Source: Nemertoderma westbladi
Taxonomy: Eukaryota; Animalia; Xenacoelomorpha
Length of the DNA: 64,000 nt
Reading direction: 5' to 3'
Assembly (NCBI GenBank): GCA_032718475.1
Contig: JAUCBJ010008130.1
Location: forward strand, 1 to 64,000
In this document: positions 2,455 through 50,717 of the stretch, piece by piece
Layout of the letters: each line of letters opens with the position of its first letter
How positions within the stretch are numbered: the first letter of the stretch is position 1
The notes under the pieces: generated by a model
Databases searched by the model: none
What the model saw: the letters and a program-made list of their open reading frames with translations, nothing else
What the model was told of the DNA's origin: nothing
Program-made: the position numbers and the translations under genes

Positions 2455-4091
2455 TCAAAATAAATAAAGAAAGAGATACCGGAGAATTGCAGTGAATATA
2501 CACATGGAACTTTGGTGTGTAGGTGCTGCATCAGTTGTAGTTTCCATAGTTACTGTTTCTGTAGATAAAGTTGACGTTTCTTCTGTTGTCATTATTGTTG
2601 ATGGTAGCGGGATGCTTGTAGCATTGGATCCTTGTATTATGTCATTGACAAACAAAGCTACTCCTAGATCGGCGAAAACGATTTTTTCTTTTCCATCAAT
2701 AAATTGAACGAAACCCCCATCCAGACCCTCCTTCACACGTGTTTCCTCATATTTGAAAACCAATACCGAAATATTTCTGATTCCATAAACAATGCCCGCG
2801 TCATAACACGCTCCTTTATCACCTATTTCAACAACCATTTGTTCGACCAAAGAAAACTCTGCCTTAATCGCAATGGCAAGATCATTACTGGTGACTCCCA
2901 TACATGGGTTGTAGGTGATGTTGTAAGGTAAACTTGTCTGGTAAACGTTCCCTGCAAAAGTAAGTGTTACACCATCTGCTGTGATGGGTGGTAGCGATTC
3001 CTCATCTAAGATAGATTTCACAGCATCTTTAAATGCTGCACTACTGATGTTGGTGTTCGTAGTGGCTAATTTTGTTACAAGGTCTATTGAACCACAGCCA
3101 ATACTTGTTACTGTTACAGTAACATGTCCAATATTTGAATTGCCTTGTAATGCGTTTGTTACGGCATTAACATATTGTGAAGTTACATCAGCTTGTGTTG
3201 CAACATTACTTGTAACTGCAGTACAATTGCCATCAAACGATGTTATTATAGTAGTTGAAGGATTAGTCACCTGTGGAGTTGTAACTGTAGTTGCCTGTGG
3301 AGTTTCCACTGTAGTTGCCACTGTAGTTGCCTGTGGACTTGCCACCGTAGTTGCTTCTGTAGTTGCCTCTGTAGTTGCCTGAGGAGTTGCCTCTGTAGAT
3401 GTCTGTGGAGTTGCCACTGTAGTTGCCGGTGGAGTTTCCACTGTAGTTGCCGATGTAGTTGCCACTGTAGTTGCCGATGTAGTTGCCACTGTAGTTGCCT
3501 GTGGACTTGCCACCGTAGTTGCATATGTAGTTGCCACTGTAGTTGCCTGTGGAGGTTTCACTGTAGTTGCCACTGTAGTTGCCTCTGTAGTTGCCACTGT
3601 AGTTACCGTTGTAGTTGCGACTGTAGTTGCCTGTGGAGTTGCCATTGTAGTTGCCTGTGGAGTTGCCTCTGTAGTAGTTGCCACTGAAGTTGCCTGTGGA
3701 GTTGCCACTGTAGTTGCCTGTGGAGGTGCCTCTGTAGTTGCCACTGTAGTTGCCTGTGGAGTTGCCACTGTAGTTGCCGATGTAGTTACCACTGTAGTTG
3801 CCGATGTAGTTGCCACTGTAGTTGCCTGTGGAATTGCCTCTGTAGTTGCCACTGTAGTTGCCGCTGTAGTTGCCATTGTAGTTGCACCCGTTGTTGCCTC
3901 TGGAGTTGCCTGTGGAGTTGTCTCTGTAGTTGCCTCTGTAGTTGGCTGTGGAGTTGCCACTGTAGTTGCCTGTGGAGTTGCCTCTGTAGTTGCCTCTGTA
4001 GTTGGCTGTGGAGTTGCCACTGTAGTTGCCTGTGGAGTTGCCTCTGTAGTTGTCAATGTTGTTGCTGCCGTACTTGCCACTGTAGTTGATT
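2455..4091 (-). CDS. Last exon of host gene: Thr/Ala/Pro-rich mucin stalk, possible SEA-like domain, hydrophobic C-terminus (possible GPI signal)
   Basis: Open frame. Acceptor tttttacag (CAG at 4094-4092), phase 1, in frame with the tectonin exon. TTVATPQA-type repeats at ~3270-4085. GCGSI motif. C-terminus ...MCIFTAILRYLFLYLF*. Confidence 0.8.
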
Positions 4092-4426
4092 CTGTAAAAA
4101 GGTAGTTTTTAATAATTTAATTAAAACGTGTTCGTTAATAATTAAATAACTTATTTCAAGTGCGGTCCCGTCGTCTGAACTATATTCCCCACTGGAAACT
4201 AGTACTCATTTAGCGAACATTAAAGGATGCAAAGCAATGATGCGAGATCTATTTTGAGCATTCAAGCAGAAAATATAAAACTGTAATAATTACTTATGCC
4301 TAATCTTAATATTGGAACGTCATCGGAGATTATTCAGTTTTATTCGCTTTTCAGATGATTGATTTATAAATTCTGTGTTTTTATTACTCCAGAATATTGC
4401 AATATTGTATGTATATTACCGATATC

Positions 4427-4612
4427 GTACGGTACATGTACAGTACATGCGGTACGTACGGTACATGTACAGTACATGCGGTACGTACGGTACATGTACA
4501 GTACATGCGGTACGTACGGTACATGTACAGTACATGCGGTACGTACGGTACATGTACAGTACATGCGGTACGTTCGGTACATGTACAGTACATGCGGTAC
4601 GTACGGTACATG
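4427..4612. repeat. 29-bp minisatellite (~6.3 copies) built from GTAC palindromes
   Basis: Unit ggtacatgtacagtacatgcggtacgtac; period 29 (4431, 4460, 4489...). Confidence 0.95.
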
Positions 4613-4645
4613 TGTATCGATACATGTATATCGATCATTTCGTCA

Positions 4646-4756: not shown

Positions 4757-5350
4757 CTCGATATATTTAAATTCACATTTAATCTCAATCATTTCACACG
4801 TGGCTTATATCAATTGAAAGCCGATAGTCTTGAGCGTCTTTTGACACTACAATTAATTAAATTCATGGTGAGGAACATTGATAAAATGAATCATTTCACC
4901 ACAATTATAAACTCGTAGTTTTCCTGACCGGTATGCAAGTAGTTTACTGAACCACTCGCACTCAGCCCTATCCATCTATTGCATTGCATTATCGGACTAT
5001 TGCTGTATTGCAGCTTAAGTTCATTAAGTTGAAATGTGTACCGGTCAGCGGTAGCGTAAGAGTGGTACAGCGGTAGGTTAACTCAACTTAATGAACTTTA
5101 GCAACAATTTCGACTGTTTACTCACGTTTTTACAAAAAACACACCCTGTCACTCGATTCAGAGCACCTTATTACCCCTTATTCGATTGTTTCTAGCCCAA
5201 CAATTTTTTCGCGCTCCAACCATATTCTGTATTATTTGTTTTGGTTTAATAAAAGGAATTAAATAAAAATGTGAAGAGCGCAAAGCGCGCCTGGCTTGGT
5301 AGTGTTTATATTATAATTAAAATGCTATAAATATGCACTTAACAACTCAC

Positions 5351-6124
5351 CTGGTAAGCCCACACAGTTCCCTGTAGTCCATATCTTCCCTCGATAGTCC
5401 ACCCCCCAAACCCTACCATTCCAATCACTGATGCTCACTTGCTTCAATCCACCTGCTACCCGTTCCCAAACGGGATTTATGTTATGATTGTTGTTTTTTG
5501 CTGCTTCCAATGTGGCTTTGTAAATTTCATGGTTTGTCGTTGTAGCCATTACAACACCATTTGCTCCTGAACTAATCGTTAGCCAGTCTTCAGCTGCCCA
5601 TTCTGTAAAGCTTCCAACAATGTTATTTGAATCAAAGGTGCCTAACATGTAATGTAGACCTTGTGAATGAATCCCCCAAAGGCCTGATGCTCCGAAGCTG
5701 ATGTCTGACAAGCTTGCGTCAATGACTTGAAACCATGATGTACCGCCAGGTCTTGATGCCGATATACCTAATCTCTGGAAAACATTGTTAAAGGAATTTA
5801 TACCCCAGACTCCATTGCTGGTTGAGTCGACTGTTATCCTAGTAATTGCTCCATCAATCGCTATCCATTCATTGCCTGTTGGATTTTGCTGACTGATAGC
5901 TTGACGGTAGTAAACGTCATAGTTTGAATTAACTCCCCAAACAATATCATTTCCAACGGCAATATTGCTGAGTCCCCCAGGGATATCAATCCAACTCGTA
6001 CCTATATCACAGGTTCCATATGTCCCATATCGGTAGAGAGTATTATCATCAGAGTTCACACCCCAAACTCCAGCTTGGCCAGTACTCACCCACTTAAGTG
6101 TTCCAGTCACTGTTAGCCACTGAA
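5351..6124 (-). CDS. Host exon: tectonin/TECPR beta-propeller lectin domain
   Basis: Repeated VWGVN/WxxIxG motifs (VWGVNSDD, VWGVNSNY, VWGINSFN, LWGIHS, VWGVDY). Acceptor tttcag (CAG 6127-6125), donor gtgagt at 5350. 774 nt, phase 1-1. Confidence 0.9.
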
Positions 6125-6380
6125 CTGAAATAAATTATATTAGATTGAGCAGATTAGAAAAAATAATAATCCATATATTCTATTATCTATCAATAATATA
6201 TTGGTAGTTCATTAAAATACCGAAAATAAAATGTATTTTAATTTGAAACTTTAAATGAAATTTTAATTTTTGAACCTATAATAAATCTGATCTTTATATT
6301 TAATTCTACCTTTACCTACTTTTACAGTACAATCAACTGAACTAAATACTGAATTAACTTATTTAAATTGATTTAATTGG

Positions 6381-9300
6381 ATGTCTCAAGGCTCGCAGCG
6401 TTGTTGCCAGTGTTCCGTCCGCGCTTGTGGCCCCACGAGTCGATGCCGCTGTGTCCGTTCTGGCCAGCCATGTGTTGGCTGTGCACCGCTGTCTTCGGGC
6501 GGCTGTCTGAACCCGCATCAGAATCCGGTTATGGTAGACTCAAAAGTTTCTGATTCCTCCATTCATGGGGATGACTCCGACTCTGACTCCGACACTGACT
6601 CATTCTCAAGTGCGGTTATTACACAAATACCAGCTAGGCGCTCCTGTGACAGACACTCGTCTGCTCCAGGTGAATCCACACCTTCTTCGACCTCGGCTTC
6701 TACCCCATCCCTTTCAACACAGGATCGGTTGGAGTCGGCGTTTGGTGGTCCCTGGCTGAACTCTCCTGGTTCATCGACTGATCTGGCCTGGGAGGCTCGG
6801 TACTCCCGTCTCACTCTCCTTCCGGGACATCAGTACATAGTGCCGGGTGGGAATGTTGGTCGGAAGATCGCCGATTTCTTGGCCCGCGAGCTGGAGTTCC
6901 TGACAGATGGGATACACCCCTCGGAACGGCCCCTCTGCTTCATCGCAGTCGTGTTTCAACGAGACCCAATGGTGAAGAAGAGCGCGGATATCCGGCGCAC
7001 CCTATTGCGTCGGATAGGTATGTGGGAGCGTGAGGAGTTCAACCAGCTGGTGGTCGAATCGGAGCGTTGCAGCATGAAATTCGCCAAGTCCCGAGGATCT
7101 GGTGGTCAAGAGACCCCAGCCCGAGTTTTTAATAGAAAAATTCTGGCTGGACAGAACCGGGCTGCCGTCCGCCTCATCACAGACAGGGACAGAGGTGGGA
7201 TTTTAGATCCGGATGCCCAGGCTGAGGGACGACCACCTGGGGTTACCATTCGTGACGTCCTCTCGGAGAAACACCCGCCCCAATTGGATGTATCTCCCGA
7301 TGCGTTCGAGCCCTGCGACGAGTTGCCCACCTTCGAGGACGTCGACATCACGGGGCAACTCGTCCTCAAGGTAACTCGTGCTCTGCGGGGAGGGGCTGGT
7401 CCGATCGGCGGAGACGCCGAACTTTGGAGTGCGCTGCTAACCCGCTACGAGGCGCACAGTGCACGCCTCCGTGAGGCCGTCGCCGGGTTGGCTAGGCGTC
7501 TTGCCAACACGCTGGTTCCTTGGGGTGAGATTTGTGCGCTCCGGGCTTGCCGACTCATTGGGATTGACAAGGAGCCCGGCGTCCGTCCCATCGGCATCGG
7601 AGAGGTCCTGTATCGTCTCTTAACCAACTGCCTTACAGCCGCCACCAAGATGGATTTTATTACGGAGTGCGGGGCGGACCAACTGTGCGCCGGAGTGAAG
7701 GCAGGCATCGAAGGTGCAGTCCACGCGATGTCGGCGCTGTACGAAGAAGAATCCACCGAGTGCATGCTCCTCGTCGATGCTTCAAACGCGTTCAACAGTC
7801 TCAGCCGTCCGGTTGCCCTGTGGAACGCGCGCGTGTACTGGCACCGGTGCTCCCGGTACCTTTTCAATGCGTACAATGGCCACGCAGCCCTATATCTACA
7901 GGGGTCCAATAAACCGCTGTGGAGCAGGGAGGGGTACACGCAGGGTGATCCGGCTGCCATGCTAGGGTACGGTTGCGGGACTCTTCCATTGATTAGGTCG
8001 ATGCGGGAAGTTGAGGTACGCACCGGAGCGGTTGAACCCATCACTCAGTCGCAGCCGCCACCCCCACCCGGCACCCCGCCACTGTTTCATCCAGACACCC
8101 CAACACCGATTCAACCCGGCTCCCATCCGCAGTCTCAACCCGCCACCCCATTGCTGACACAACCCGGCACCCCAACGCTAACACAACCCAGCGCCAGCAC
8201 TCCGTTGCTAGTGTATTCCGGCATCCCGCCGCTGTCTCAACCCGGCACCTCGTCGCTGTCTCAACCCCGAACCCTGGCGCTATCTCAACCCGGCACCACA
8301 TCGCTGTCTCAACCCTGCTCCCAGACATTGGCTCAACCCGGCTCCGGCAGCCCCGTTGCCTCCCAAAGGCAGTGCTGGTATGCCGATGATGCTTCATCAG
8401 CCGGTTCCATCATCGGTGTGTTGAGTTGGTGGGAGAAGCTTCTCCGTGTAGGGCCACGAATCGGGTACAACCCGGAACCCACCAAGTCCTACTTGGTGGT
8501 GAAACCCGAGTTTGCCGAGAGGGCGCGAGAGTCGTTTGGGAAGTTTGGGGTCCGGATTGTTTCAGGGCACCGTTTCCTGGGGGGTTACGTGGGCGACCCG
8601 CTGGGTTTACGCGAGTTCATCGCCGAGAAGGTGTCCGGGTGGGTCTGGAGTATAGGTCGACTCGCCGAGGTGGCCGAGGAGTTCCCACAGACCGCCCACG
8701 CTGGGTTGACCAGGTGTGTCCAGGCGGAGTGGGACTACCTGTTACGGGTGGTGGAGACAGACGAGGAGGACCTGGAACCCATCCGGTCGGCGCTCCTGCG
8801 CCAGTTCGTCCCGGCTCTGTTCGGTACGTCTGGGATGTGTGAGGGAGAGCTCCTGTTACTCCCTGTCCGACATGGCGGCATTGGGATCCGGGACCCACTA
8901 TTGCGCCGGGGGCACGCCCGGGAGGCGTCGCTCGCCGGGACTGTCGGGGTTGTAGACACCTTAACCACTGGTCACCCCCTCCTTGTCGCGGACCATGCAG
9001 TCTGTCTCGCCTCGGCCCTTGCCAAGAGCCGGATCGCTCAGGATGCGGCCTACAAGGCTAGACAGTTAGACGCCCTCCAAGCCATCCCTGCTGATCGACG
9101 CCGCACGGTGGAACGTACGGTATCCCACAAGACGGGGGGTTGGTTAACGGCTCAGCCCTCCGTGGTAGACCACACGGACCTGGACCCGGAGGTATTCCGG
9201 GACAACCTTGCCCTGAGGTATGGTCTGACGCCGCCGGGCCTCCCGGCAAAGTGTGAGGGGTGTGGGGACCCGTTCACAACAACCCACGCACTTAATTGCA

Positions 9301-9902
9301 AGTCGGGAGGCCTTGTTATAAAGCGGCACGATGAGGTGCGTGAGGTTTTTGGTGATCTCATCGCGTCCGCCTTTGGCGGCTCGTCGGTCCAGAGGGAGGT
9401 AACACTGTCCACTGGTTACCTGGACAGACTGGGTCGCGAGGTCGGTGGGGTCAGGGCTGATCTTTTGGCGCGAGGAGTCTGGGCCAATCAGAGGGTGGCG
9501 TCTTTCGACATTGCGGTTGTAAACGCCGACGCCCCCTCTTATTCCAACCGGTCCGTAGACTCCATTCTAGAACAACGGGTTCGCGCCAAGAAGGTCCATT
9601 ATAGCGCGGTGTGCGAGGACAGGAGGATCTCCTTCACCCCCCTAGTAGGTACCACCGACGGGGTGTGGTGCAAGGAGGCAGAGATCCTGATCCGCCACCT
9701 CGCTGAGACCCTCGTTGCCCGGCGGCAGGGGATGCGGGAACGTGGCCTTGCTTGCGTTCTTGGGGGAGTTCGGAGGCGGCTTCAGTTCGCGCTCCTCCGC
9801 TCCAACTCCCTGTGTTTGCGTGGGGGTCGGCGGTCCTGGAGGTGTCTCGGGTTCGGGGACGGAGCTGGTCTGCGTGGGTCTGACTTACCAGACAATTATT
9901 GA
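6381..9902 (+). mobile_element. CRE-clade non-LTR retrotransposon, intact single ORF (N-terminal Cys-rich CXC-like domain, RT, CCHC knuckle, restriction-like endonuclease)
   Basis: Motifs GVRPIGIGE, LLVDASNAFNS, QGDP, WYADD, RHGGIG, CEGC..HALNC, RHDEVR, RADLL..FDIAV, FTPLV. A T-rich 3' UTR follows, with an A-rich tract at ~10044-10062. Confidence 0.9.
8066..8350 (+). repeat. 24-bp (8-aa, QPGTxxLS-like) in-frame tandem repeat inside the CRE RT domain
   Basis: Recurrent caacccggcacc...ctgtct units between QGDP and YADD. Confidence 0.85.
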
Positions 9903-10179
9903 TTTGGTGGTGGCATTCTTGCTATTCCTTGGTGGTGCGATTTTTAATTGCTTTTAATTGTTTGTTCGTTACTTTTATATTGTGTTATCCTGTACAATAT
10001 AATGTTATCTTTGTTTATAATAAATACTTTCAATTTTAATTTGAAAAAAAAAACAAAAAAAAGAAGATAATATTTTCATCAAACCAAAATTTTTTTTAGA
10101 TATTTTCTTAAATTGTATTAAATAGTTTTGTAATATAAGATTAAAAACTTTCAAAATAATTGCACAAAACATGGCATGG

Positions 10180-10235
10180 ATAGCTTTAACAAAAATGGAT
10201 ACCATCTGGAAATCACATCTCTCCAGGCACCCGAA
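10180..10235 (+). mobile_element. Short RTE-like LINE fragment
   Basis: aaaatggataccatctggaaatca..tctc..caggcacc matches 23781-23820; translates AWIALTKMDTIWKS. Confidence 0.6.
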
Positions 10236-10289
10236 GAAGAACTTATTGGACAAACCGATAGTTGGACTCGTAGGATGGTTATACTGCCA

Positions 10290-13200
10290 GCTGGACCCAT
10301 GGGGACGGAGACTCCGCAGCTGGACCAGTGGGAATGGAGACACCGAAGCTGGACCCATGGGGACGGAAATTCCGAAGCTAGACCAGTGGGAATGAGACAC
10401 CGAAGCTGGACCAGTGGGATGGAGACACCGAAGTGGACCAGTGGGAATGGAGACACCGAAGCTGGACCCATGGGGACGGAAATTCCGAAGCTAGACCAGT
10501 GGGAATAGAGACACCGAAGCTGGACCAGTGGGAATGGAGACACCAATGCTGGACCAGTGGGAATGGAGACACCGAAGCTGGACCCATGGGGACGGAAATT
10601 CCGAAGCTAGACCAGTGGGAATAGAGACACCGAAGCTGGACCAGTGGGAATGGAGACACCGAAGCTGGACCAGTGGGGATGGAGACACCGAAGCTGGACC
10701 AGTGGGAATAGAGACACCGAAGCTGGACCAGTGGGAATGGAGACACCGAAGCTGGACCCATGGGGACGGAAATTCCGAAGCTAGACCAGTGGGAATAGAG
10801 ACACCGAAGCTGGACCAGTGGGAATGGAGACACCGAAGCTGGACCCATGGGGACGGAAATTCCGAAGCTAGACCAGTGGGAATAGAGACACCGAAGCTGG
10901 ACCAGTGGGAATGGAGACACCGAAGCTGGACCCATGGGGACGGAAATTCCGAAGCTAGACCAGTGGGAATAGAGACACCGAAGCTGGACCAGTGGGAATG
11001 GAGACACCGAATGCTGGACCAGTGGGAATGGAGACACCGAAGCTGGACCCATGGGGACGGAAATTCCGAAGCTAGACCAGTGGGAATAGAGACACCGAAG
11101 CTGGACCAGTGGGAATGGAGACACCGAAGATGGACCAGTGGGAATGGAGACACCGAAGCTGGACCAGTGGGAATGGAGACACCGAAGATGGACCAGTGGG
11201 AATGGAGACACCGAAGACTGGACCAGTGGGAATGGAGACACCGAAGCTGGACCCATGGGGACGGAAATTCCGAAGCTAGACCAGTGGGAATAGAGACACC
11301 GAAGCTGGACCAGTGGGAATGGAGACACCGAAGCTGGACCAGTGGGAATGGAGACACCGAAGCTGGACCAGTGGGAATGGAGACACCGAAGATGGACCAG
11401 TGGGAATAGAGACACCAATGCTGGACCAGTGGGAATGGAGACACCGAAGCTGGACCCATGGGGACGGAAATTCCGAAGCTAGACCAGTGGGAATAGAGAC
11501 ACCGAAGCTGGACCAGTGGGAATGGAGACACCAATGCTGGACCAGTGGGAATGGAGACACCGAAGCTGGACCCATGGGGACGGAAATTCCGAAGCTAGAC
11601 CAGTGGGAATAGAGACACCGAAGCTGGACCCATGGGGACGGAAATTCCGAAGCTGGACCAGTGGGAATAGAGACACCGAAGCTGGACCAGTGGGAATGGA
11701 GACACCGAAGCTGGACCAGTGGGGATGGAGACACCGAAGATGGACCAGTGGGAATGGAGACACCGAAGCTGGACCCATGGGGACGGAAATTCCGAAGCTA
11801 GACCAGTGGGAATAGAGACACCGAAGCTGGACCAGTGGGAATGGAGACACCGAAGCTGGACCCATGGGGACGGAAATTCCGAAGCTAGACCAGTGGGAAT
11901 AGAGACACCGAAGCTGGACCAGTGGGAATGGAGACACCGAAGCTGGACCAGTGGGAATGGAGACACCGAAGCTGGACCCATGGGGACGGAAATTCCGAAG
12001 CTAGACCAGTGGGAATAGAGACACCGAAGCTGGACCAGTGGGAATGGAGACACCGAAGCTGGACCCATGGGGACGGAAATTCCGAAGCTAGACCAGTGGG
12101 AATAGAGACACCGAAGCTGGACCAGTGGGAATGGAGACACCGAAGCTGGACCCATGGGGACGGAAATTCCGAAGCTAGACCAGTGGGAATAGAGACACCG
12201 AAGCTGGACCAGTGGGAATGGAGACACCGAAGCTGGACCCATGGGGACGGAAATTCCGAAGCTAGACCAGTGGGAATAGAGACACCGAAGATGGACCAGT
12301 GGGAATGGAGACACCAATGCTGGACCAGTGGGAATGGAGACACCGAAGCTGGACCCATGGGGACGGAAATTCCGAAGCTAGACCAGTGGGAATAGAGACA
12401 CCGAAGCTGGACCAGTGGGAATGGAGACACCGAAGCTGGACCAGTGGGAATGGAGACACCGAAGCTGGACCAGTGGGAATGGAGACACCGAAGCTGGACC
12501 AGTGGGAATGGAGACACCGAAGATGGACCAGTGGGAATGGAGACACCGAAGCTGGACCCATGGGGACGGAAATTCCGAAGCTAGACCAGTGGGAATAGAG
12601 ACACCGAAGCTGGACCAGTGGGAATGGAGACACCGAAGCTGGACCAGTGGGAATGGAGACACCGAAGCTGGACCCATGGGGACGGAAATTCCGAAGCTAG
12701 ACCAGTGGGAATAGAGACACCGAAGCTGGACCAGTGGGAATGGAGACACCGAAGCTGGACCCATGGGGACGGAAATTCCGAAGCTAGACCAGTGGGAATA
12801 GAGACACCGAAGCTGGACCAGTGGGAATGGAGACACCGAAGCTGGACCCATGGGGACGGAAATTCCGAAGCTAGACCAGTGGGAATAGAGACACCGAAGC
12901 TGGACCAGTGGGAATGGAGACACCGAAGCTGGACCCATGGGGACGGAAATTCCGAAGCTAGACCAGTGGGAATAGAGACACCGAAGCTGGACCAGTGGGA
13001 ATGGAGACACCGAAGCTGGACCAGTGGGAATGGAGACACCGAAGCTGGACCAGTGGGAATGGAGACACCGAAGCTGGACCAGTGGGAATAGAGACACCGA
13101 AGACTGGACCAGTGGGAATGGAGACACCGAAGCTGGACCCATGGGGACGGAAATTCCGAAGCTAGACCAGTGGGAATAGAGACACCGAAGCTGGACCAGT

Positions 13201-16200
13201 GGGAATGGAGACACCGAAGCTGGACCAGTGGGAATGGAGACACCGAAGCTGGACCAGTGGGAATGGAGACACCGAAGATGGACCAGTGGGAATAGAGACA
13301 CCGAATGCTGGACCAGTGGGAATGGAGACACCGAAGCTGGACCCATGGGGACGGAAATTCCGAAGCTAGACCAGTGGGAATAGAGACACCGAAGCTGGAC
13401 CAGTGGGAATGGAGACACCAATGCTGGACCAGTGGGAATGGAGACACCGAAGCTGGACCCATGGGGACGGAAATTCCGAAGCTAGACCAGTGGGAATAGA
13501 GACACCGAAGCTGGACCCATGGGGACGGAAATTCCGAAGCTGGACCAGTGGGAATAGAGACACCGAAGCTGGACCAGTGGGAATAGAGACACCGAAGCTG
13601 GACCAGTGGGAATGGAGACACCGAAGCTGGACCAGTGGGAATGGAGACACCGAAGCTGGACCCATGGGGACGGAAATTCCGAAGCTAGACCAGTGGGAAT
13701 AGAGACACCGAAGCTGGACCAGTGGGAATGGAGACACCGAAGCTGGACCCATGGGGACGGAAATTCCGAAGCTAGACCAGTGGGAATAGAGACACCGAAG
13801 CTGGACCAGTGGGAATGGAGACACCGAAGCTGGACCAGTGGGAATGGAGACACCGAAGCTGGACCCATGGGGACGGAAATTCCGAAGCTAGACCAGTGGG
13901 AATAGAGACACCGAAGCTGGACCAGTGGGAATGGAGACACCGAAGCTGGACCCATGGGGACGGAAATTCCGAAGCTAGACCAGTGGGAATAGAGACACCG
14001 AAGCTGGACCAGTGGGAATGGAGACACCGAAGATGGACCAGTGGGAATAGAGACACCAAGCTGGACCAGTGGGAATGGAGACACCGAAGCTGGACCCATG
14101 GGGACGGAAATTCCGAAGCTAGACCAGTGGGAATAGAGACACCGAAGATGGACCAGTGGGAATGGAGACACCAATGCTGGACCAGTGGGAATGGAGACAC
14201 CGAAGCTGGACCCATGGGGACGGAAATTCCGAAGCTAGACCAGTGGGAATAGAGACACCGAAGCTGGACCAGTGGGAATGGAGACACCGAAGCTGGACCA
14301 GTGGGAATGGAGACACCGAAGCTGGACCAGTGGGAATGGAGACACCGAAGCTGGACCAGTGGGGATGGAGACACCGAAGCTGGACCAGTGGGAATGGAGA
14401 CACCGAAGCTGGACCCATGGGGACGGAAATTCCGAAGCTAGACCAGTGGGAATAGAGACACCGAAGCTGGACCAGTGGGAATGGAGACACCGAAGCTGGA
14501 CCAGTGGGAATGGAGACACCGAAGCTGGACCCATGGGGACGGAAATTCCGAAGCTAGACCAGTGGGAATAGAGACACCGAAGCTGGACCAGTGGGAATGG
14601 AGACACCGAAGCTGGACCCATGGGGACGGAAATTCCGAAGCTAGACCAGTGGGAATAGAGACACCGAAGCTGGACCAGTGGGAATGGAGCACCGAGCTGG
14701 CCGGGGCGGCCGAAGCTAGACCAGTGGGAATAGAGACACCGAAGCTGGACCAGTGGGAATGGAGACACCGAAGCTGGACCCATGGGGACGGAAATTCCGA
14801 AGCTAGACCAGTGGGAATAGAGACACCGAAGCTGGACCAGTGGGAATGGAGACACCGAAGCTGGACCAGTGGGAATGGAGACACGAAGCTGGACCCTGGG
14901 GACGGAAATTCCGAAGCTAGACCAGTGGGAATAGAGACACCGAAGCTGGACCAGTGGGAATGGAGACACCAAGCTGGCCGTGGGGAGGAGACACCGAAGC
15001 TGGACCAGTGGGAATGGAGACACCGAAGCTGGACCAGTGGGAATGGAGACACCGAAGCTGGACCAGTGGGAATGGAGACACCGAAGATGGACCAGTGGGA
15101 ATGGACACCAAGCTGGACCAGTGGGAATGGAGACACCGAAGCTGGACCCATGGGGACGGAAATTCCGAAGCTAGACCAGTGGGAATAGAGACACCGAAGC
15201 TGGACCAGTGGGAATGGAGACACCGAAGCTGGACCAGTGGGAATGGAGACACCGAAGCTGGACCAGTGGGAATGGAGACACCGAAGATGGACCAGTGGGA
15301 ATGGAGACACCGAAGCTGGACCCATGGGGATGGAAATTCCGAAGCTAGACCAGTGGGAATAGAGACACCGAAGCTGGACCAGTGGGAATAGAGACACCGA
15401 AGCTGGACCAGTGGGAATGGAGACACCGAAGCTGGACCAGTGGGAATAGAGACACCGAAGCTGGACCAGTGGGAATGGAGACACCGAAGATGGACCAGTG
15501 GGAATAGAGACACCAATGCTGGACCAGTGGGAATGGAGACACCGAAGCTGGACCCATGGGGATGGAAATTCCGAAGCTAGACCAGTGGGAATAGAGACAC
15601 CGAAGCTGGACCAGTGGGAATGGAGACACCAATGCTGGACCAGTGGGAATGGAGACACCGAAGCTGGACCCATGGGGACGGAAATTCCGAAGCTAGACCA
15701 GTGGGAATAGAGACACCGAAGCTGGACCAGTGGGAATGGAGACACCGAAGATGGACCAGTGGGAATGGAGACACCGAAGCTGGACCAGTGGGAATAGAGA
15801 CACCGAAGCTGGACCAGTGGGAATGGAGACACCGAAGATGGACCAGTGGGAATGGAGACACCGAAGCTGGACCAGTGGGAATGGAGACACCGAAGCTGGA
15901 CCAGTGGGAATGGAGACACCGAAGATGGACCAGTGGGAATGGAGACACCGAAGCTGGACCAGTGGGAATGGAGACACCGAAGCTGGACCAGTGGGAATGG
16001 AGACACCGAAGCTGGACCAGTGGGAATGGAGACACCGAAGCTGGACCAGTGGGAATGGAGACACCGAAGCTGGTCTCGTGGGGACGGAGACACCGAAGCT
16101 AGACCAGTGGGAATAGAGACACCGAAGCTGGACCAGTGGGAATAGAGACACCGAAGCTGGACCAGTGGGAATGGAGACACCGAAGCTGGACCCATGGGGA

Positions 16201-18530
16201 CGGAAATTCCGAAGCTAGACCAGTGGGAATAGAGACACCGAAGCTGGACCCATGGGGACGGAAATTCCGAAGCTAGACCAGTGGGAATAGAGACACCGAA
16301 GCTGGACCAGTGGGAATGGAGACACCGAAGCTGGACCCATGGGGACGGAAATTCCGAAGCTAGACCAGTGGGAATAGAGACACCGAAGCTGGACCAGTGG
16401 GAATGGAGACACCGAAGCTGGTCTCGTGGGGACGGAAATTCCGAAGCTAGACCAGTGGGAATAGAGACACCGAAGCTGGACCAGTGGGAATGGAGACACC
16501 GAAGCTGGACCAGTGGGAATGGAGACACCGAAGCTGGACCCATGGGGACGGAAATTCCGAAGCTAGACCAGTGGGAATAGAGACACCGAAGCTGGACCAG
16601 TGGGAATGGAGACACCGAAGCTGCCGCGGAAATTCCGAAGCTAGACCAGTGGGAATAGAGACACCGAAGCTGGTCTCGTGGGGACGGAGACACCGAAGCT
16701 AGACCAGTGGGAATAGAGACACCGAAGCTGGACCAGTGGGAATGGAGACACCGAAGCTAGACCAGTGGGAATAGAGACACCGAAGCTGCACCAGTGGGAA
16801 TGGAGACACCGAAGCTGGTCTCGTGGGGACGGAAATTCCGAAGCTAGACCAGTGGGAATAGAGACACCGAAGATGGACCAGTGGGAATGGAGACACCGAA
16901 GCTGGTCTCGTGGGGACGGAGACACCGAAGCTAGACCAGTGGGAATAGAGACACCGAAGCTGGACCAGTGGGAATGGAGACACCGAAGCTGGACCAGTGG
17001 GAATGGAGACACCGAAGCTGGTCTCGTGGGGACGGAAATTCCGAAGCTAGACCAGTGGGAATAGAGACACCGAAGCTGGACCAGTGGGAATGGAGACACC
17101 GAAGCTGGACCAGTGGGAATGGAGACACCGAAGCTAGACCAGTGGGAATAGAGACACCGAAGCTGGACCAGTGGGAATGGAGACACCGAAGATGGACCAG
17201 TGGGAATGGAGACACCGAAGCTGGTCTCGTGGGGACGGAGACACCGAAGCTAGACCAGTGGGAATAGAGACACCGAAGCTGGACCAGTGGGAATGGAGAC
17301 ACCGAAGATGGACCAGTGGGAATAGAGACACCAATGCTGGACCAGTGGGAATGGAGACACCGAAGCTGGACCCATGGGGACGGAAATTCCGAAGCTAGAC
17401 CAGTGGGAATAGAGACACCGAAGCTGGACCAGTGGGAATGGAGACACCAATGCTGGACCAGTGGGAATGGAGACACCGAAGCTGGACCCATGGGGACGGA
17501 AATTCCGAAGCTAGACCAGTGGGAATAGAGACACCGAAGCTGGACCAGTGGGAATGGAGACACCGAAGATGGACCAGTGGGAATGGAGACACCGAAGCTG
17601 GACCAGTGGGAATGGAGACACCGAAGCTGGACCAGTGGGAATGGAGACACCGAATGCTGGACCAGTGGGAATGGAGACACCGAAGCTGGACCAGTGGGAA
17701 TGGAGACACCGAAGCTGGACCAGTGGGAATGGAGGCACCGATGCTGGACCAGTGGGAATGGAGACACCGAAGCTGGACCCGTGGGGACGGAGACTCCGAA
17801 GCTAGACCAGTGGGAATAGAGACACCGAAGCTGGACCAGAGGGAATGGAGACACCGAAGATGGACCAGTGGGAATGGAGACACTGAAGCTGGACCAGTGG
17901 GAATGGAGACACCGGAGCTGGGCCAGTTGGAATGGAGACACCAATGTTGGACCAGTGGGAATGGAGACACAGAAGCTGGACCAGTGGGAATGGATACGCT
18001 GAAGCTGGACCAGCGGGAATGGAGGCACCGATGATGGACCAGTGGGAATGGAGACACCGAAGCTGGACTCGTGGGGACGGAGACTCCGAAGCTGGACCAG
18101 TGGGAATGGAGACACCGAAGCTGGACTCGTGGGGACGGAGACTCCGAAGCTAGACCAGTGGGAATAGAGACACCGAAGCTGGACTCGTGGGGACGGAGAC
18201 ACAGAAGCTGGACCAGTGGGAATGGATACGCTGAAGCTGGACCAGCGGGAATGGAGACACCGATGATGGACCAGTGGAAATCGAAACACAGAAGCTGGAC
18301 CAGTGGGAATGGAGACACCGAAGCGGGACCAGTGAGAATGGAGACACAGAAGCTGGACCAGTGGAAATGGAGACACCGAAGCAGGGCCAGTGGGAATTGA
18401 AACACCCTGAAGCTGGACCAGTAGGAATGGACCTACCAACAGTTGGACCCACGGGGATGGACATGCCGACAGTTGGAGCCGTGGGAACGGACACACTGTC
18501 AGCTGAAATCATGGGAATGGACACAGAGTT
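10290..18530. repeat. ~8.2-kb 29-bp satellite array with an 87-bp trimeric higher-order unit
   Basis: Monomer gaagctggaccagtgggaatggagacacc. Variants gaagctggacccatggggacggaaattcc and gaagctagaccagtgggaatagagacacc recur as a trimer. The array degenerates after ~17700. Confidence 0.97.
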
Positions 18531-19041
18531 GACCCACCCAACTCCTGTCTTGACAACTGAGCCCAGGGGACTCAATTGAATGACATCTGGTTCTTCCCGG
18601 AACAGAATGCCCACACCAGAGGGAAGCGACTGGTCAGGAACAGTTTCCCCTTCACAACGGGCGTTTCTGAGAATCACTGTTGCCCAAGCACTTGCCTCAT
18701 CTGGGGACAGATCACGCCATGTTAGCCAGGGTGAGTTTGACGTGGGATGCACCCTGGAAGTAGCTGAAAGCTGAAACTGCCCCCCCCCCCACCCCATATA
18801 AAGTCCTATCAGTGTCTTGAAGAGTCTCATCTAGGGGAGACTCATCACCATTATCCGTTGGCTGCAACAAACTCCTTTGACACTGGAAACATTCGGCTGG
18901 GATTTGATGTACCCTAGAGCGTTTCTGCCCAGCCCATTTAACGATGGGGCGCAGGTAGTGCAATTGAGTCCCCATTTCACACAAGCACACCTTTATCGCG
19001 TGACACCCACAACAATCAGGGACCCTAGGATGCTGGGACAT
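18400..19041 (-). pseudogene. Decayed 5' part of a second CRE-like retrotransposon ORF
   Basis: From ATG 19041: MSQHPRVPDCCGC, then after a frameshift RCACVKWGLNCTTCAPSLNGLGRN. This aligns with MSQGSQRCCQC...RCRCVRSGQPCVGCAPLSSGGCLN at 6381. Confidence 0.7.
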
Positions 19042-19461
19042 CGCCCATTCACAATGATATGCTGGCTGTAGTCTGACTAGTATGTAAGCAGTAACTCTAG
19101 CAGTAAAATTAGCTGATCCCCCAAATCAGTACTCTACATCTGTAGTTTGTTGTACTTGTTGTAATTATAGTAGTTTGATTTATTTAACAGATACTTGTTT
19201 ACTGAACAGAACAGATAATTGTTTTCTGTTAATATGTAAGTAATGATAATAATGTAAATTTGTAAATATATTTTATTTTATATTTGAAATTTAGTAGCCA
19301 TAGCATTTTACAGTAAATATTGTCTTATACTGTCGTGGTGAGCGTCTAATATGTCATTATTTTTCATTATTTCAAGAAGGACATATCTCATAATAAGCTA
19401 TGCTTGTTGTATACATTGAGTATATTATAAGTATTGAAGTTAAATGCTATTAAAGTATCAA

Positions 19462-19696
19462 CGGCTGGGTAGCTCAGTTGGTTGAGCGCCGGGCCTGCAA
19501 TCTATTGGTTGTAGGTTCAGCCCCGCCAGGGTCCACTCAGCCTTTCATCCACTGGGGTCGATGAAATGAGTACCAGTTAAATAACTGGGAGCAAATCTTG
19601 GGATAGGAGTAGCGCCCACCCCTACCCTCGGGTAGCAGCTATCGAAAGAGGAGCCTTCGGGTCGCCTCCGGCTTCGGCCGACTGTTTGCTTGCTTG
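19462..19696 (+). mobile_element. tRNA-derived SINE, full-length copy 2 with 10-bp TSD
   Basis: TSD aaagtatcaa at 19452-19461 and 19697-19706. A/B boxes, conserved central block, (ttgc)n tail. Confidence 0.9.
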
Positions 19697-21387: not shown

Positions 21388-22089
21388 CATCTTGTTGGTA
21401 AATTAATTGATCTTCATAAACTTCTTCCAGATCTTGCAGTGATAAATAGCAGCTGTAATACCGAGCATGTGAGATATATCCTGGGAAGCGTTGATTTGGA
21501 AACATGCATTCAGCAGTCCCACAAATACTTCGTCCCAAATAAAGATCGAAAACATGATCATTAACATCTCTGTTAGTATTGATGGTGTTAACAACATCTA
21601 TTCTTTGATGTTCAGAACTCCCAACTTTTCGACTGTAGAGGAATGTTTGCATATTGACGACGCCAACTGCAACCATATACCATTCTCCAATAGTCACAGC
21701 GTTTCTAAGTAATTTCCCGGGTTCACCAGCACCAGAAGGATTGGGATTATACCAAAGATCCTCAGCATTAGGGCAGCATAACCATAAATGTGACCCATAT
21801 GAAGTAGAACTGCTAAATTCAAATATTGGTCCCCATTGAGTTCCAGTTGTCTTAATAAAAGCTACCATGGTAAATGTCTCTGAAGTTAACTCGTCATGTC
21901 CATGTGATATTGAGATATAACCAGTATTACTTATCATGTCAACTGCTTGATTTTCTATCCCCCCAGGACCAACACTATATGTTATAATGCCGTTTTCAAT
22001 ACCATGATGATTTCCATAAAAATCGACAGCTGCATTTGATACATCCCAGATCCACAAAGACTTGTCTTTTTCACAAGGATCTGAAACAT
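21388..22089 (-). CDS. Host exon: concanavalin A-like lectin/LamG/pentraxin-like domain
   Basis: Motifs FTMVAFIK, GPIFEFS, GEWYMVAV, LYLGR, FPGYISHARYY..LS. Acceptor atttcag (CAG 22092-22090; alternative 9 nt downstream), donor gttagt at 21387. Phase 1-1. Confidence 0.85.
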
Positions 22090-22260
22090 CTGAAATAATA
22101 ATGTTAAAATTCAAATTCAAATTCAAATTCAAATTCGTATATTTCTTTCACTTATAACTATACACGAATTGCACAAATTAATATTGTAAATATTGGCAGC
22201 AGAGGCGCAGGCAATAGCAGAGCTAGTGGAGCCAGGGCCAATGCGTAAGTCATAAGTGGG

Positions 22261-23549: not shown

Positions 23550-24030
23550 GCATATGAAATCGCCCTGCTCTCTAATATGCTAGCAGATGCACGACTGCAC
23601 AGCTTCTACTGCTTAAAGTGGAGAGGGCTGCTAAGGAGGTTGGATTGCATATAAATGCTACCAAGACTGTTATGTTGATGGAAACGTGACGACTTTTAGT
23701 ACCTGGGATCATGGATAGAGAGTAGCTTAAAATACATATAAGTTATGAAAGCAAATGCATGGGTACTCTTAGCTGTATCAAAAATGGATACCATCTGGAA
23801 ATCAGATCTCTACAGGCACCTGAACACTAAGTTCTTTCGAGCCACAGTAGAAAGTGTGACTTTATATGTGACCTGGATAGTGACAAAAATCACTTGAACA
23901 ACAAATTGATGGTTTTTACGCAAGACTATTGAAAGGGCAGCCCTAAATTAGCTGGAGAAAACACATGGCAAACACCGAGCTTTATGGTATGCTGTTCCCT
24001 GAGGCATTCATGATACCATTTGAATACGTA
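23550..24030 (+). mobile_element. Decayed RTE-like RT C-terminal fragment
   Basis: Pieces KVERAAKEVGLHINATKT, YLGSWI, KMDTIWKS, FFRATVES with frameshifts and stops. Confidence 0.65.
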
Positions 24031-29936: not shown

Positions 29937-32276
29937 GGTACTACTATGTTATGGGTACCCATTTTTTGACCAATTATTTGTCCATTGTAATAGCTATTAT
30001 CATGAGGCTTTTTGTTTTAGAACATAAATTTCATCTCCTTAGAGACGATAGCTATTGTTTTTTTATGGTAGCTAGTGTTTTTTTTAAGGTAGCTACTGTT
30101 TTTAAAATTACAAATCCTAATTCTTGGTACATATTTTTTGATAAATTTTTCGACTTGTTAATATATATTATCATAATGTTCTGTTGTTCTAGAACATAAA
30201 TTTCATCTTCTGAAAGACGTTAGCTATTGTTTTTTTATGGTAGCTAGTGCTTTTTAAAGGTAGCTACTGTTTTTAAAATTACAAAACCAAATTTTTGGTA
30301 GCTATTTTTTATGAAATTTTGGACTTGTTAAAGGATATTTCATAATGTTTTTTTGTTCTAGAACATAAATTTCGCATTTTGAAAGATGTTAGCTAGGCCT
30401 ATAATTTTTTATTATCGTAGCTAGTGTTTTTTAGGGTATCCAGTATTCTTAAAATTCAAGAGAAAATTTTTAGTGCCCCCTTTTATTTAAATAATTTCCA
30501 TAATATCAAGATATTCTAGAATTTTGTATATTATGTTTTGATATTAATCTCGATATAATGGCTAGTGGATATTCTCGACATACCTTTCATTTGCCTACTA
30601 TACATGACCCTACTGTGAATGAATTTGTGAAATTTAATGAAACTGAAGGTGACGCAATTAATTATGCACAATCTCAAGGGCTTTTACCCCCCATGGATTC
30701 AAAGAAATCATGCAAAACTTGTGAATCTCCGGCATCATTAACAGTTTGGAATAAGTATGGGTTTCCACGATTAATGTGGCGTTGCAAAGGTAAATCGCGA
30801 CATCGAATTAGTGCTCATAATGGAACATGGTTTGGGGGAAGCCACTTACTTGTTAGACAAATTCTTTGGCTCCTCTTCTCCTTCATTGCCGAAAGGTCCT
30901 TCAAGCTTACACATAAGCTTTTAGGAGACCAAATGGGCTCATCAAACGATGTTGTCATTGTCGATTGGCACAATTATATTCGTGAGGTTATGCACAAGGA
31001 ATTGGTCAATGCTAAACCAATGGGTGGGCCAGGCCAAATCGTGCAGATTGATGAGTCGTTTTTCAGTGGAAGAAGGAAGTATAAAAGAGGTAGGAAATTA
31101 CTTGGAGATGCAGTGCCGTCAGCAAAGTGGAATTATGGAAATCAGGTTGTTGGTCCATGGGTGTTTGGGATGGTTTGTGTTTTGGCTTCTGGGGAGACAG
31201 ATATACGTCTGTTCCGTGTTGCACGCAGAGATGCGCGCACTCTGCGACCAATTATAGAAAAAATGTCAAGGGTGGAAGCCACATACAAAGCGATGAATGG
31301 AGTGCCTATTGTGGCACTAATCAAGGAATAACCAACGAAAAAAACCCATGGAAATGTGTAGACGGTAGCGGAACATATACACATTCGTCAGTCTGTCACT
31401 CTAAGAAAAAGACCAAGAAAAAGTTGACTTGGATGCAAAAAAAAAGAAGGGGGAGGTTTGTAGATCCGTTCACTGGCTGTAATACGCAACGCATTGAAGT
31501 CATGTGGTCCCATGCAAAGCTTACTCTAATGCGAAAAAAGCGTGGTACTCGTGAGGAGTTGGTGAAACATCACTTAGCAGAATTCTGTTGGCGTCAACTC
31601 CACAAGAAAACGCCATTTTTGGATGCCCTTGAAATGATAAAGAAATATTATTAAACATGATAAACAGTCTTGTAAGCAACGGTACCGGTATAGTAATTTA
31701 TATTTCTGACTGAGTGTAATAAAAAATATACATAATTTTACATAACTTACATTACACAACTTGATTGACAACATGAATAATATTAACTGTATTTTTACAG
31801 CACATAAAAAAACTAGCTAGTAAATAATTATGACTCGCTATAACCCCCTGGCTATAAAATTCAAATTACTAGCTACCATTACTCATAAATTATTCCACAT
31901 AAATGTAATTGAGGATTAAATTATATTTTTTATTTTTTTAACTAGCTAATAAAAAGTACTAGCTAACACAAAATTAAAATTACTAGCTATCATCTTACTG
32001 TCAGAAGGTCAAATATTTATTCTAATACAAAAACCCTCATGCTTAAAGCCATTTTTACAAGAAAACAGTAGGTCAAAATTTATTTTCAAATTTTCAATCT
32101 AAATTTTTTTAACTAGCTAATAAAAAGTACTAGCTAACACGAAAATAAAAATTTATGGCTACCAACTAACTGTCAGAAGGTCAAATATTTGTTCTAGAAC
32201 AAAAAACCTCATAATAAAAGCCATTTTCATAAGAAAAAATTGGTCAAAAAGTGGGTACCCATAACATAGTAGTACC
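29937..32276 (+). mobile_element. Merlin (IS1016/ISXO2-like) DNA transposon
   Basis: TIR ggtactactatgttatgggtaccca / tgggtacccataacatagtagtacc. 8-bp TSD taagctag/tatgctag (1 mismatch). Subterminal tandem repeats at both ends. Confidence 0.92.
30558..31654 (+). pseudogene. Merlin DDE transposase, frameshifted in an A-run at ~31258-31263
   Basis: GGPGQIVQIDES, WVFGMV, RRDARTLRPII | IQSDEWSAY, HSSVCHS, FVDP..NTQRIE. Confidence 0.9.
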
Positions 32277-32380
32277 TATGCTAGCTAGCTTTGGAGATCA
32301 GACAGAGATTTACGTTTAATTTCAATACAATACATAATAAATAATAATGCAAACGTGCATTATTTATAAAAATGAAGGGA

Positions 32381-36230: not shown

Positions 36231-37719
36231 TGTCCGCGGTATTTCAACTTTTCATAACGCGAGTTGAATATTTTTTGTATTTATTTAAAATGATTATTCC
36301 GATATCACTACTGGGTGCGGGACCATGGGTTTTGGGCACACTCAATGAACTGGGGGCGATTTATGGGCGAACTTTGGGGCGTCTTACAGGGTACGGGACT
36401 CATTTCAGGTTTATAAGGGCCAGGGGTGGGAGGCAAAATTAAGCAGTATTCAGGTTTGCCTGAGTACTATTAGGCCTAGCCAACGTCCTGCTGCCTGTAG
36501 AGGTGGATTTGGTAACTCGCTAGGTCTAAAGGACAAGGACTGCCCTTAGCGGTCCCTGGCTAACAGCAGTTATTACAAGCCTGAAAAGGATATCGGAAAG
36601 TATGCTGCTTGTGTCAGGGATTTGCGACGGGAAACGACAGCCCCCTTAGCCAAGCCGTACTGGTTCTCGATGACCGATCCCTTCGGGGTTCGCGAGGGGT
36701 GGGATGGACACGCGAAAGGGCGGCCGACTAATAGAGGAAGGGTTTGACGAGGACTGCCCTTAGCGGTCTCTGGTCAACAGCAGTTATTACGAGCCTGAAA
36801 AGGACATCGGAAAGTCTGCTGCTTGTGCCAGGGATTTGCGACGGGAACCGACAACAGACCCCTTAGCCAAGCCGTACTGGTTCTCGATGATCGTTCCCTT
36901 CGGGGTTCGTGAGGGGTGGGATGGACACGCGATGGGGTCGAAAGACAGAGGACTGGACTCTACTGGCCTACCGACTGTCGGAGCAGTTTCTCGGCCGCCG
37001 AAGCGACTATGAGCCTGAATAAGGACTCGGAAAGCCTAGGTGGTTGGGTCTCTGCGATGAACCGACGGACCCCTAGCCAAGCCGTACTGGTTCTCAATGA
37101 TCGTTCCCTTCGGGGCTCGTGAGGGGTGGGACGGACACGCGAACGGGTCCACCGACACGACAGACTCCTAGCCAAGCCGTACTGGTTCTCGATGACTGAT
37201 CCCTTCGGGGTTCGAGAGGGGTGGTACGGATACGCGACAGAGTCTACCGACTGGACCGACCCTTAGCCAAGCCGTACTGGTTCTCGATGATCGATCCCTT
37301 CGGGGTTCAGGAGGGGTGGGATGGACACACGACAGGGTCGACCGACACCGACACTACGGCACCAAAACTAGGACCGAGGGAAAATCTGGGGAACATTAGT
37401 TAGGCTAAAATCTGAGCGAACATTGGGTAATTAAATAATTTACTGTAGGGATTTATATTGTCGTGTATTATTATTGTGAATAATTTGGTGTATATTGATT
37501 TGGGGAAGCCCAATTTATTCTCAATCAAGGTTCAACTGTAGGGAAGTTACATTAAAGCGTATATCCAACCAATGCAGCTTTTTCTCAACCGCAATCTTGC
37601 ATTTAAGAACATTCCTTCTCCACAATCAATATCCGGTGACTGGCCGGGATTCCGTGGTCTGTAAAATTCCGCCTCCAGCATCGGCGTTTTCCCCCATGGT
37701 GTCGGGAATAACGGCAACA
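36231..37719 (+). repeat. 5' LTR (1489 bp) with internal structured repeats
   Basis: Aligns end to end with 49228-50717. Confidence 0.95.
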
Positions 37720-38115
37720 AAATTGAGAATAAAACGCGGCCAACTTCAACTGGTGGAAGTTGGGAATCCTACAATACTCTTCAAACTCTCTCCGTGCTTA
37801 CCAGCACCCACTACGAGGAAACCCTGGTATTTGAGTTAAGACAAAGTCGTGGTCTAATAAATCAACAAACTCGATCTAACCAACTCGTAGTCGGCAGATC
37901 ACATATTTGGAGAGTTGTTAACAGGGAGTGGAAGTATCGATCACACCCATTGATATAATCCAAGTTGAGCCAGGAATCTGGCACTTCGAGGTTGAAGTAC
38001 AAGGAACGAACGTCGGACAATTCAGGATTACCTTTCGGGTGGTCCAGGCTGAGTACAATACCTACGAGGAACTATTTTACGACATCGCACATCTAGCTAT
38101 CAACGAGGCGCTACA

Positions 38116-49227: not shown

Positions 49228-50717
49228 TGTTCGCGGTATTTCAACTTTTCATAATGCGAGTTGAATATTTTTTGTATTTATTTAAAATGATTATTCCAAT
49301 ATCACTACTGGGTGCAGGACTATGGGTTTTGGGCACACTCAATGAACTGGGGGCGATTTATGGGCGAACATTGGGGCGACTTACAGGGTACGGGACTCAT
49401 TTCAGGTTTATAAGGGCCAGGGGTGGGAGGCAAAATTAAGCAGTATTCAGGTTTGCCTGAGTACTATTAGGCCTAGCCAACTTCCTGCTGCCTGTAGAGG
49501 TGGATTTGGTAACTCGCTAGGTCTAAAGGACAATGACTGCCCTTAGCAGTCCCTGGCCAACAGCAGTTAATACGAGCCTGAAAAGGAAATCGGAAAGTCT
49601 GCTGCTTGTGTCAGGGATTTGCGACGGAAAACGACAGCCCCCTTAGCCAAGCCGTACTGGTTCTCGATGACTGATCCCTTCGGGGTTCGCGAGGGGTGGG
49701 ACGGACACGCGAAAGGGCGGCCAACTAACAGAGGAAGGGTTTGACGAGGACTGCCCTTAGCGGTCTCTGGTCAACAGCAGTTATTACGAGCCTGAAAAGG
49801 ACATCGGAAAGTCTGCTGCTTGTGCCAGGGATTAGCGACGGGAACCGACGACAGACCCCTTAGCCAAGCCGTACTGGTTCTCGATGATCGTTCCCTTCGG
49901 GGTTCGTGAGGGGTGGGACGGACACGCGACGGGGTCGAAAGACAGAGGACTGGACTCTACTGGCCTACCGACTGTTCGGAGCAGTTTCTCGGCTGCCGAA
50001 GCAACTACGAGCCTGAATAAGGACTCGGAAAGCCTAGGTGGTTGGGTCTCTGCAATGAACCGACGGACCCCTAGCCAAGCCGTACTGGTTCTCAATGATC
50101 GTTCCCTTCGGGGCTTGTGAGGGGTGGGACGGACACACGAACGGGTCCACCGACACGACAGACTCCTAGCCAAGCCGTACTGGTTCTCGATGACCGATCC
50201 CTTCGGGGTTCGAGAGGGGTGGTACGGATACGCGACAGAGTCTACCGACTGGACCGACCCTTAGCCAAGCCGTACTGGTTCTCGATGATCGATCCCTTCG
50301 GGGTTCGGGAGGGGTGGGACGGACACGCGACAGGGTCGACCGACACCGACACTACGGCACCAAGACTAGGACCGAGGGAAAATCTGGGGAACATTAGTTA
50401 GGCTAAAATCTGAGCGAACAGTGGGTAATTAAATAATTTACTGTAGGGATTTATATTGTCGTGTATTATTATTGTGAATAATTTGGTGTATATTGATTTG
50501 GGGAAGCCCAATTTATTCTCAATCAAGGTTCAACTGTAGGGAAGTTACATTAAAGCGTATATCCAACCAATGCAGCTTTTTCTCAACCGCAATCTTGCAT
50601 TTAAGAACATTCCTTCTCCACAATCAATATCCGGTGACTGGCCGGGATTCCGTGGTCTGTAAAATTCCGCCTCCAGCATCGGCGTTTTCCCCCATGGTGT
50701 CGGGAATAACGGCAACA
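49228..50717 (+). repeat. 3' LTR (1490 bp), preceded by a polypurine tract
   Basis: ggggggga c|tgttcgcggt...ggcaaca|tatgt. Confidence 0.95.

Follow-up and report, generated by a model that had tools for sequence, protein, structure and literature searches.

In Lathyrus sativus, satellites expanded from short tandem arrays inside long terminal repeat (LTR) retrotransposons (Vondrak et al., PMC7004042), and in Chenopodium a CACTA transposon gave rise, from its tnp2 domain, to the satellite CficCl-61-40 (Belyayev et al., PMC7320549). Among human minisatellites and satellites 23% are transposon-derived (Ahmed and Liang, PMC3389668), and tandem repeats of transposon origin, including some from ORF2 of long interspersed nuclear elements (LINEs), have been tabulated (PMC9659126). 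Homogenisation is weaker at array ends, where old monomers are kept (PMC10048060). Elements of the CRE clade carry a reverse transcriptase (RT), a restriction-like endonuclease, one or two internal repeat regions and zinc-finger-like motifs (PMC12278014). Here we analyze the first 64,000 nucleotides of contig JAUCBJ010008130.1 from Nemertoderma westbladi (assembly GCA_032718475.1), a stretch that we call the window. It contains an array of 29-bp units that, judging from the units themselves, very probably expanded in place from inside an older 30-bp minisatellite after the loss of one base. On balance we favor, by a modest degree of confidence, the fuller reading in which that minisatellite encoded a repeat within the N-terminal linker of a dead CRE-type retrotransposon.

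The locus resembles the Lathyrus case (PMC7004042) in that a short, retrotransposon-borne array appears to have expanded in place into a long one. The Lathyrus parents are abundant and carry the short array, and the origin is shown, whereas here there is a single non-LTR relic, a coding-looking seed and a unit that has become one base shorter. CficCl-61-40 is comparable in that its monomer, of about 40 bp, came from transposon coding sequence still attached to the array; it differs in its DNA transposon source, in starting from a single coding fragment and in being the main satellite of its genome, while our array seems to derive from a coding repeat at what seems to be one locus. The human and tabulated cases share repeats that begin in transposons and grow by local duplication, and the parts of PMC3389668 and PMC9659126 that were covered contain no CRE case and no switch of unit length from 30 to 29 bp. 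Old monomers at array ends, as in PMC10048060, correspond to the three layers described below, with the difference that here the old ends have another unit length, which gives a direction, and that the layering is lopsided. The relic beside our array shares an N-terminal Cys motif with the homologs of an intact neighboring element and differs from the CRE clade as described in PMC12278014 in lacking the enzymatic parts.

The locus is a new, traceable example of a known process whose parent is only partly shown, and it leaves the understanding of how such arrays arise unchanged. Transposon origins of satellites are mostly claimed from sequence likeness alone; here the switch in unit length supplies a direction. 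If the coding origin is true, linker repeats of CRE elements would join the known seeds of tandem arrays. Literature searches covering abstracts and text passages listed no CRE-derived array.

The 29-bp array and the 30-bp units at its ends

Tandem Repeats Finder places the array at 10289-18431 with a period of 29 bp and 280.7 copies, in agreement with the roughly 280-fold expansion of 29-bp units described in a first-pass annotation of the sequence. In the window sequence the array is 8.1 kb long. Cutting the array body into monomers gave 280 units, of which 262 are ungapped 29-mers; the counts of single-nucleotide variants (SNVs) and of distances given below leave out the 18 gapped units. 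The array and its edges are divided as follows, all on the minus strand.

10257-10315: L1 (30 bp) and L2 (30-bp type that has lost one base at another position), followed by roughly 10 bases of a third unit
10316-17592: young core of 7.3 kb, a mosaic of monomer variants A, B and C that includes ABC trimers and blocks duplicated at offsets of 696 and 1887 bp
17593-18406: decayed older 29-bp zone, 28 units (27 ungapped)
18407-18437: unit R1 at the boundary, which keeps the frame of the 30-mers and aligns as a 29-bp type followed by an insertion of 1-2 bases
18438-18527: R4, R3 and R2, three 30-bp units of ancestral type, in-frame 10-amino-acid repeats rich in Ser, Thr, Pro and Val

The evidence for the direction of change lies in the edge units. 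Relative to the 29-mer, R4, R3 and R2 (18527-18438) share one extra base, placed identically in all three as the first base of codon 10, and the extra base of L1 (10315-10286) and L2 (10285-10257) falls at that site too (5 of 6 edge units). Since five independent insertions at one site are unlikely, the 30-mer would be the older form and the 29-bp array would have grown within it; the switch of unit length and the presence of 30-bp units at both ends likewise indicate that the 30-bp units are older than the 29-bp core. Together with its tail, L2 outscores every one of 4000 background pieces and of 4000 shuffles; by itself L2 stands out less, its score being reached by 26 of the 4000 background pieces and 11 of the 4000 shuffles. 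The 30-bp type units differ from one another at 8-12 of 29 sites (9-12 among R4, R3 and R2), and a search upstream of 18527 found no more hidden repeat units. Growth in place from the 30-mer is the best-supported part of our account. The first-pass annotation had proposed such a one-base loss followed by expansion, which these units bear out well, although it had missed the left pair (10315-10257). The 10-amino-acid peptides that it quoted are present at 18527-18408 on the minus strand; of the four 30-bp units that it counted, three carry the diagnostic base and the fourth (18437-18408) aligns as a 29-bp type with an insertion. Five internal units of 30 bp (types I and Q) have their extra base at other sites, and we rejected them as ancestral-type units on that ground.

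We also considered whether the 29-mer expanded elsewhere and was copied into a related 30-bp minisatellite by gene conversion or by insertion of a circular repeat, which would account for the lack of units intermediate between 30 and 29 bp among the array monomers and for edge 29-mers whose distance to the 30-mers is not smaller than that of core units. The flanking contigs argue otherwise. In two samples (runs X1 and X2) the right flank is one unbranched contig of single-copy depth that runs from unique sequence into the first diverged 29-mers, so that the decayed zone is joined to the single-copy flank. In the rest of the window only words of 10-11 bases match the 29-mer. Its summed contig depth is at most 1376 in X1 against 27 for single-copy sequence, below what this array alone predicts and without excess beyond one array, a weak comparison, as summed contig depth is not copy number. 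We regard copying-in as improbable. The 8-kb array has the size of a large minisatellite and looks like a single locus; metagenome scans for the 29-mer and for the adjoining relic gave no match, a result that says little about an animal genome. The array is most likely without function. A separate 29-bp tandem repeat at 4426-4613 (6.5 copies at 98%) is unrelated to it.

Age layers of the array

The core and the right edge differ in age. Nearly every ungapped core unit has an identical twin (98-100%), with 0.00-0.03 rare SNVs per unit, and the commonest variants are A (89 units), B (56) and C (45), 36 of the 45 C units lying within ABC trimers. The block duplications are marked by stretches of 463 and 405 bp that recur without a mismatch 696 and 1887 bp away. 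The core, taken for homogeneous in the earlier reading, is a mosaic. In the decayed zone (27 ungapped units, 18406-17600) we count 0.89 rare SNVs per unit, and identical twins exist for 43-46% of units. Twenty of the 24 units with rare haplotypes fall within the first 27 units at the right edge (hypergeometric p = 2e-20), which confirms the earlier observation that diverged 29-mers adjoin the 30-mers. Older monomers thus stand at both ends and younger, identical ones inside, in a lopsided arrangement with 28 decayed 29-mers on the right and about one on the left.

Compared with core units, the 29-mers next to the right edge show no greater similarity to the 30-mers found there (Spearman 0.07, p = 0.29), which argues for layering in three steps of age rather than gradual morphing. 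The grading of 30-mers into uniform 29-mers that had been described is therefore stepwise, and the claim that a whole birth gradient is preserved was overstated: of the element only a 5′ relic is left, another element cuts the left side, and no 30-to-29 intermediates occur. Variant C differs from L1 at 3 sites and from R2 at 6, and variant A at 6 and 9. A monomer tree, proposed earlier for comparison with position, groups C, H and M with the old units; built on 29 sites and weakly supported, it is used here as a hint. Both comparisons suggest, tentatively, that the array drew on several of the old units rather than on a single one.

Read in this way, the locus would be a compact natural record that runs from a founder event and an initial expansion to a recent burst and the beginnings of higher-order structure. 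It may even, though this is somewhat less likely than not, amount to a full dated record of the birth of a satellite from a CRE coding repeat, with parent units at both ends, a one-base founder mark, three layers, an emerging 87-bp ABC higher-order unit and a length that varies between individuals.

A relic beside the array and the case for a CRE coding origin

On the right the array adjoins GC-rich sequence that the first-pass annotation had called the decayed N-terminus of a CRE element. The features concerned, and the intact element that served for comparison, are these.

18528-19041, minus strand: relic present in single copy and rich in GC (52.5%), which likely represents the 5′ end of a non-LTR retrotransposon of CRE type
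19041, 19014-19003 and 18780-18790, minus strand: landmarks of the relic, namely its ATG, a CCxC and a polymorphic G-run
18918-18992, minus strand: CRE-type N-terminal Cys motif of 25 residues, in another frame than the ATG
6249-10032, plus strand: intact CRE-like element with a single open reading frame (ORF) for RT and endonuclease (6381-9902, 1173 amino acids)

We take the intact element and its homologs to be CRE elements, a label that no source gives them. Among 104 homologs the Cys motif is found in 22, the second conserved motif with enough upstream sequence in 54-55, and a testable linker in 43. Scored with a profile of the 22 motifs, the relic reaches 20.4-21.0 bits (E = 1.7e-5), compared with 23.3-23.6 bits for the intact neighbor and maxima of 6.6 in 600 local shuffles and 8.1 in 30 shuffled windows. 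The ATG lies 17 codons before the motif, and 11 of the 22 homologs have theirs at 14-17; a CCxC precedes it, as in 17 of the 22. The relic stands out by its GC content (52.5%, versus 24% further upstream and about 36% in host DNA), and the GC-rich block is unbroken from the ATG to the repeats. The claim of a CRE N-terminus at 19041 holds in part, for the ATG and the Cys motif (18992-18918); no second CRE motif, RT or endonuclease was detected.

The reading frame of the relic depends on the G-run at 18780-18790, where the allele in run X2 has one G fewer, so that the frame switches between samples. The window itself may derive from X1, and X2 and X3 represent a single sample; the contigs show presence, not absence, and run X5, in which the relic is not covered, was left out. 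Read from the ATG across the 30-mers, the X2 allele is free of stops for 211 codons, and its frame enters the repeat in register, reading like a Ser/Thr/Pro linker. Over the 171 unique codons, the chance that any one given frame is this open is 0.0026, or about 0.015 after our correction for three frames and two alleles. Short significant tandem repeats are found in 10 of the 43 testable homolog linkers. In X3 the relic is covered by two adjacent contigs, and no loose ends occur inside 18380-19240 at 80% likeness. On its right the expanded array is joined to the relic in two samples (X1 and X2); its left side adjoins another element.

Other results weigh against a CRE coding origin. The likeness to CRE elements covers only 25 residues and then ceases. 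The second conserved motif (PxG core) is undetected in the three frames of the relic, which score below zero with profiles of 26 and 28 homolog segments (the intact neighbor reaches 55 bits), and the repeats start 155 residues past the Cys motif, where most homologs already reach that second motif (101-193 residues from Cys motif to PxG core in 18 of 19). Searching both flanks by tblastn with the intact ORF and the 104 homologs recovered no RT, CCHC knuckle or endonuclease of the relic; the right flank gave the Cys motif only and the left flank nothing credible. With the intact ORF as query, tblastn matched only a 20-residue Cys stretch (E = 0.75), and BLASTP against the relic ORF returned nothing (best E = 3.5). 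True motifs mostly score higher than that of the relic (21 of 22 at 21 bits or more when left out in turn), CXC-type motifs occur outside CRE also, and Pfam assigns no family to this one. The motif is out of the ATG frame, so that further frameshifts must be assumed, and in the allele of the window even the most open frame is interrupted by 2 stops, no significant result (5.8% of simulations yield a best frame with one stop or none).

The repeat and the relic are also without relatives in the data searched. None of the 104 homologs matches the 10-amino-acid repeat (best E = 1.3), the relic protein read through its one stop matched 0 of 820 candidates, and the N-terminus of the intact neighbor, used as a protein query, 0 of 1699. 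Among 1.84 billion representatives there were two matches, to bacterial Ig-like and Mind-bomb SH3 repeats, which we rejected as tandem-domain artefacts summing 8-9 weak stretches. All matches in an atlas search lie below 0.9 and serve as leads only, no relative being established. The sample contigs contain no sister copy of the relic at 80% likeness or more. No target duplication was found, 19041-19400 and 10041-10260 sharing no word of 8 bases or longer, as expected if the 3′ part is lost. Finally, third codon positions hold no excess of the differences that separate the 30-mers (15/7/8 by position).

Several of these points suit the alternative that the 30-bp minisatellite was never coding and arose in dead or unrelated DNA beside a relic of the Cys motif. 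Its reading frame would then be incidental, as any 30-mer keeps frame, which agrees with third codon positions that are not favored, a repeat seen in no homolog, an open frame that hinges on one allele of a G-run, and the abrupt end of the CRE likeness. Set against this are the high GC content that extends without a break between the ATG and the repeats, the X2 frame that meets the repeat in the register of a Ser/Thr/Pro linker, and the frequency of linker repeats among the homologs. We consider a never-coding origin unlikely, though the least unlikely of the alternatives. A coding CRE origin of the 30-mer is plausible but unproven, resting as it does on the Cys motif, the GC-rich block and the allele-dependent open frame; granted growth in place, we hold it to be reasonably probable.

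Under a coding CRE origin, the sequence of events may have been as follows. A CRE-type element would have carried at least five diverged 10-codon repeats. After its death, one inner unit would have lost a base in codon 10 and founded the first 29-bp expansion, which would be the decayed 0.8-kb zone of today. Exchange with neighboring old units could then have produced the C, H and M variants, and a recent burst of multi-unit blocks, by unequal exchange or slippage, would have made the 7.3-kb core and pushed the old units apart. The remainder of the element would have been lost where another LINE relic now sits. An inserted dead copy is under no reading-frame constraint. For this reason, and because the 29-mer forms no stronger hairpin, the one-base loss is most likely a mark of the founder unit rather than a cause of the growth. 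Folding z-scores of six strands of 116-120 nt range from −0.5 to −2.2, alike for 29-mers and 30-mers, which leaves a hairpin as driver of the expansion unsupported.

Neighboring elements and the host gene

Further features bound the locus on either side.

10171-10247, plus strand: short relic (about 75 bp) from a LINE-like RT element of very high abundance, cutting off the left end of the old repeat
2455-4116, 5350-6124 and 21388-22090, minus strand: mucin-like, tectonin and LamG-like exons with compatible phase-1 splice sites

The LINE relic is 91% identical to 23770-23824, its translation reads as a piece of a LINE RT, and its summed contig depth is about 400,000; we presume it to be RTE-type. 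No contig among those listed bridges the left junction of the array. As this opposite-strand relic abuts the left end and no CRE sequence lies past the array, the earlier placement of the array inside a CRE element is not sustained.

The intact element at 6249-10032 belongs to a multi-copy family and is flanked by a 14-bp target duplication (6235-6248 and 10033-10046). Contigs of 687 bp in X2 and X3 exit the window exactly at this duplication, as an empty allele would, and the element is likely a recent polymorphic insertion just upstream of the tectonin exon, and likely absent here in the second sample. We rejected it as the parent of the array: it is inserted in the other orientation, is flanked by a target duplication of its own and shows no DNA match to the relic. 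Its RT contains a 24-bp coding minisatellite (8066-8342, 11 copies, Pro/Gln/Thr-rich) that ends shortly before YADD and provides a live example of a coding repeat in such an element.

The three minus-strand exons (tectonin, Pfam E = 2.6e-57) are probably parts of one predicted gene for a secreted or membrane lectin with the array in its intron. The compatible phase-1 splice sites of the flanking exons indicate that the whole stretch is likely one intron, and the array is accordingly probably intronic. This setting raises the possibility that the relic and its 30-bp repeats are a dead or alternative host exon, for example a mucin-like repeat exon of the lectin gene. They lie on the same strand as the flanking phase-1 exons, one of which has a Thr-rich 12-bp coding repeat, the relic is single copy, and a single weak site resembling a splice acceptor lies at 18754. 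Against this, the Cys motif and the spacing between it and the ATG agree with the N-terminus of a retrotransposon, the GC content of 52% departs from the roughly 36% of host DNA, and the frame of the relic is polymorphic. We find a host exon hard to credit, about as much so as copying-in from elsewhere.

An inverted duplicate (1-752 and 1639-2403, 91.6% identity) matches in part 19464-19668, upstream of the relic. Beyond the LamG-like exon, transposase-like ORFs (30504-31654), which we take to be Merlin/IS1595-like, lie within 29940-32280 between inverted 172-bp subterminal tandem repeats. Two direct repeats of 1.49 kb (36231-37719 and 49228-50717, 97.5% identity), with internal tandem units of 95 and 214 bp, bracket a gag-pol-like ORF (38053-43815, plus strand). 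A second such ORF, of 2615 amino acids, follows at 54265-62112 on the same strand, and both are presumably BEL/Pao-like.

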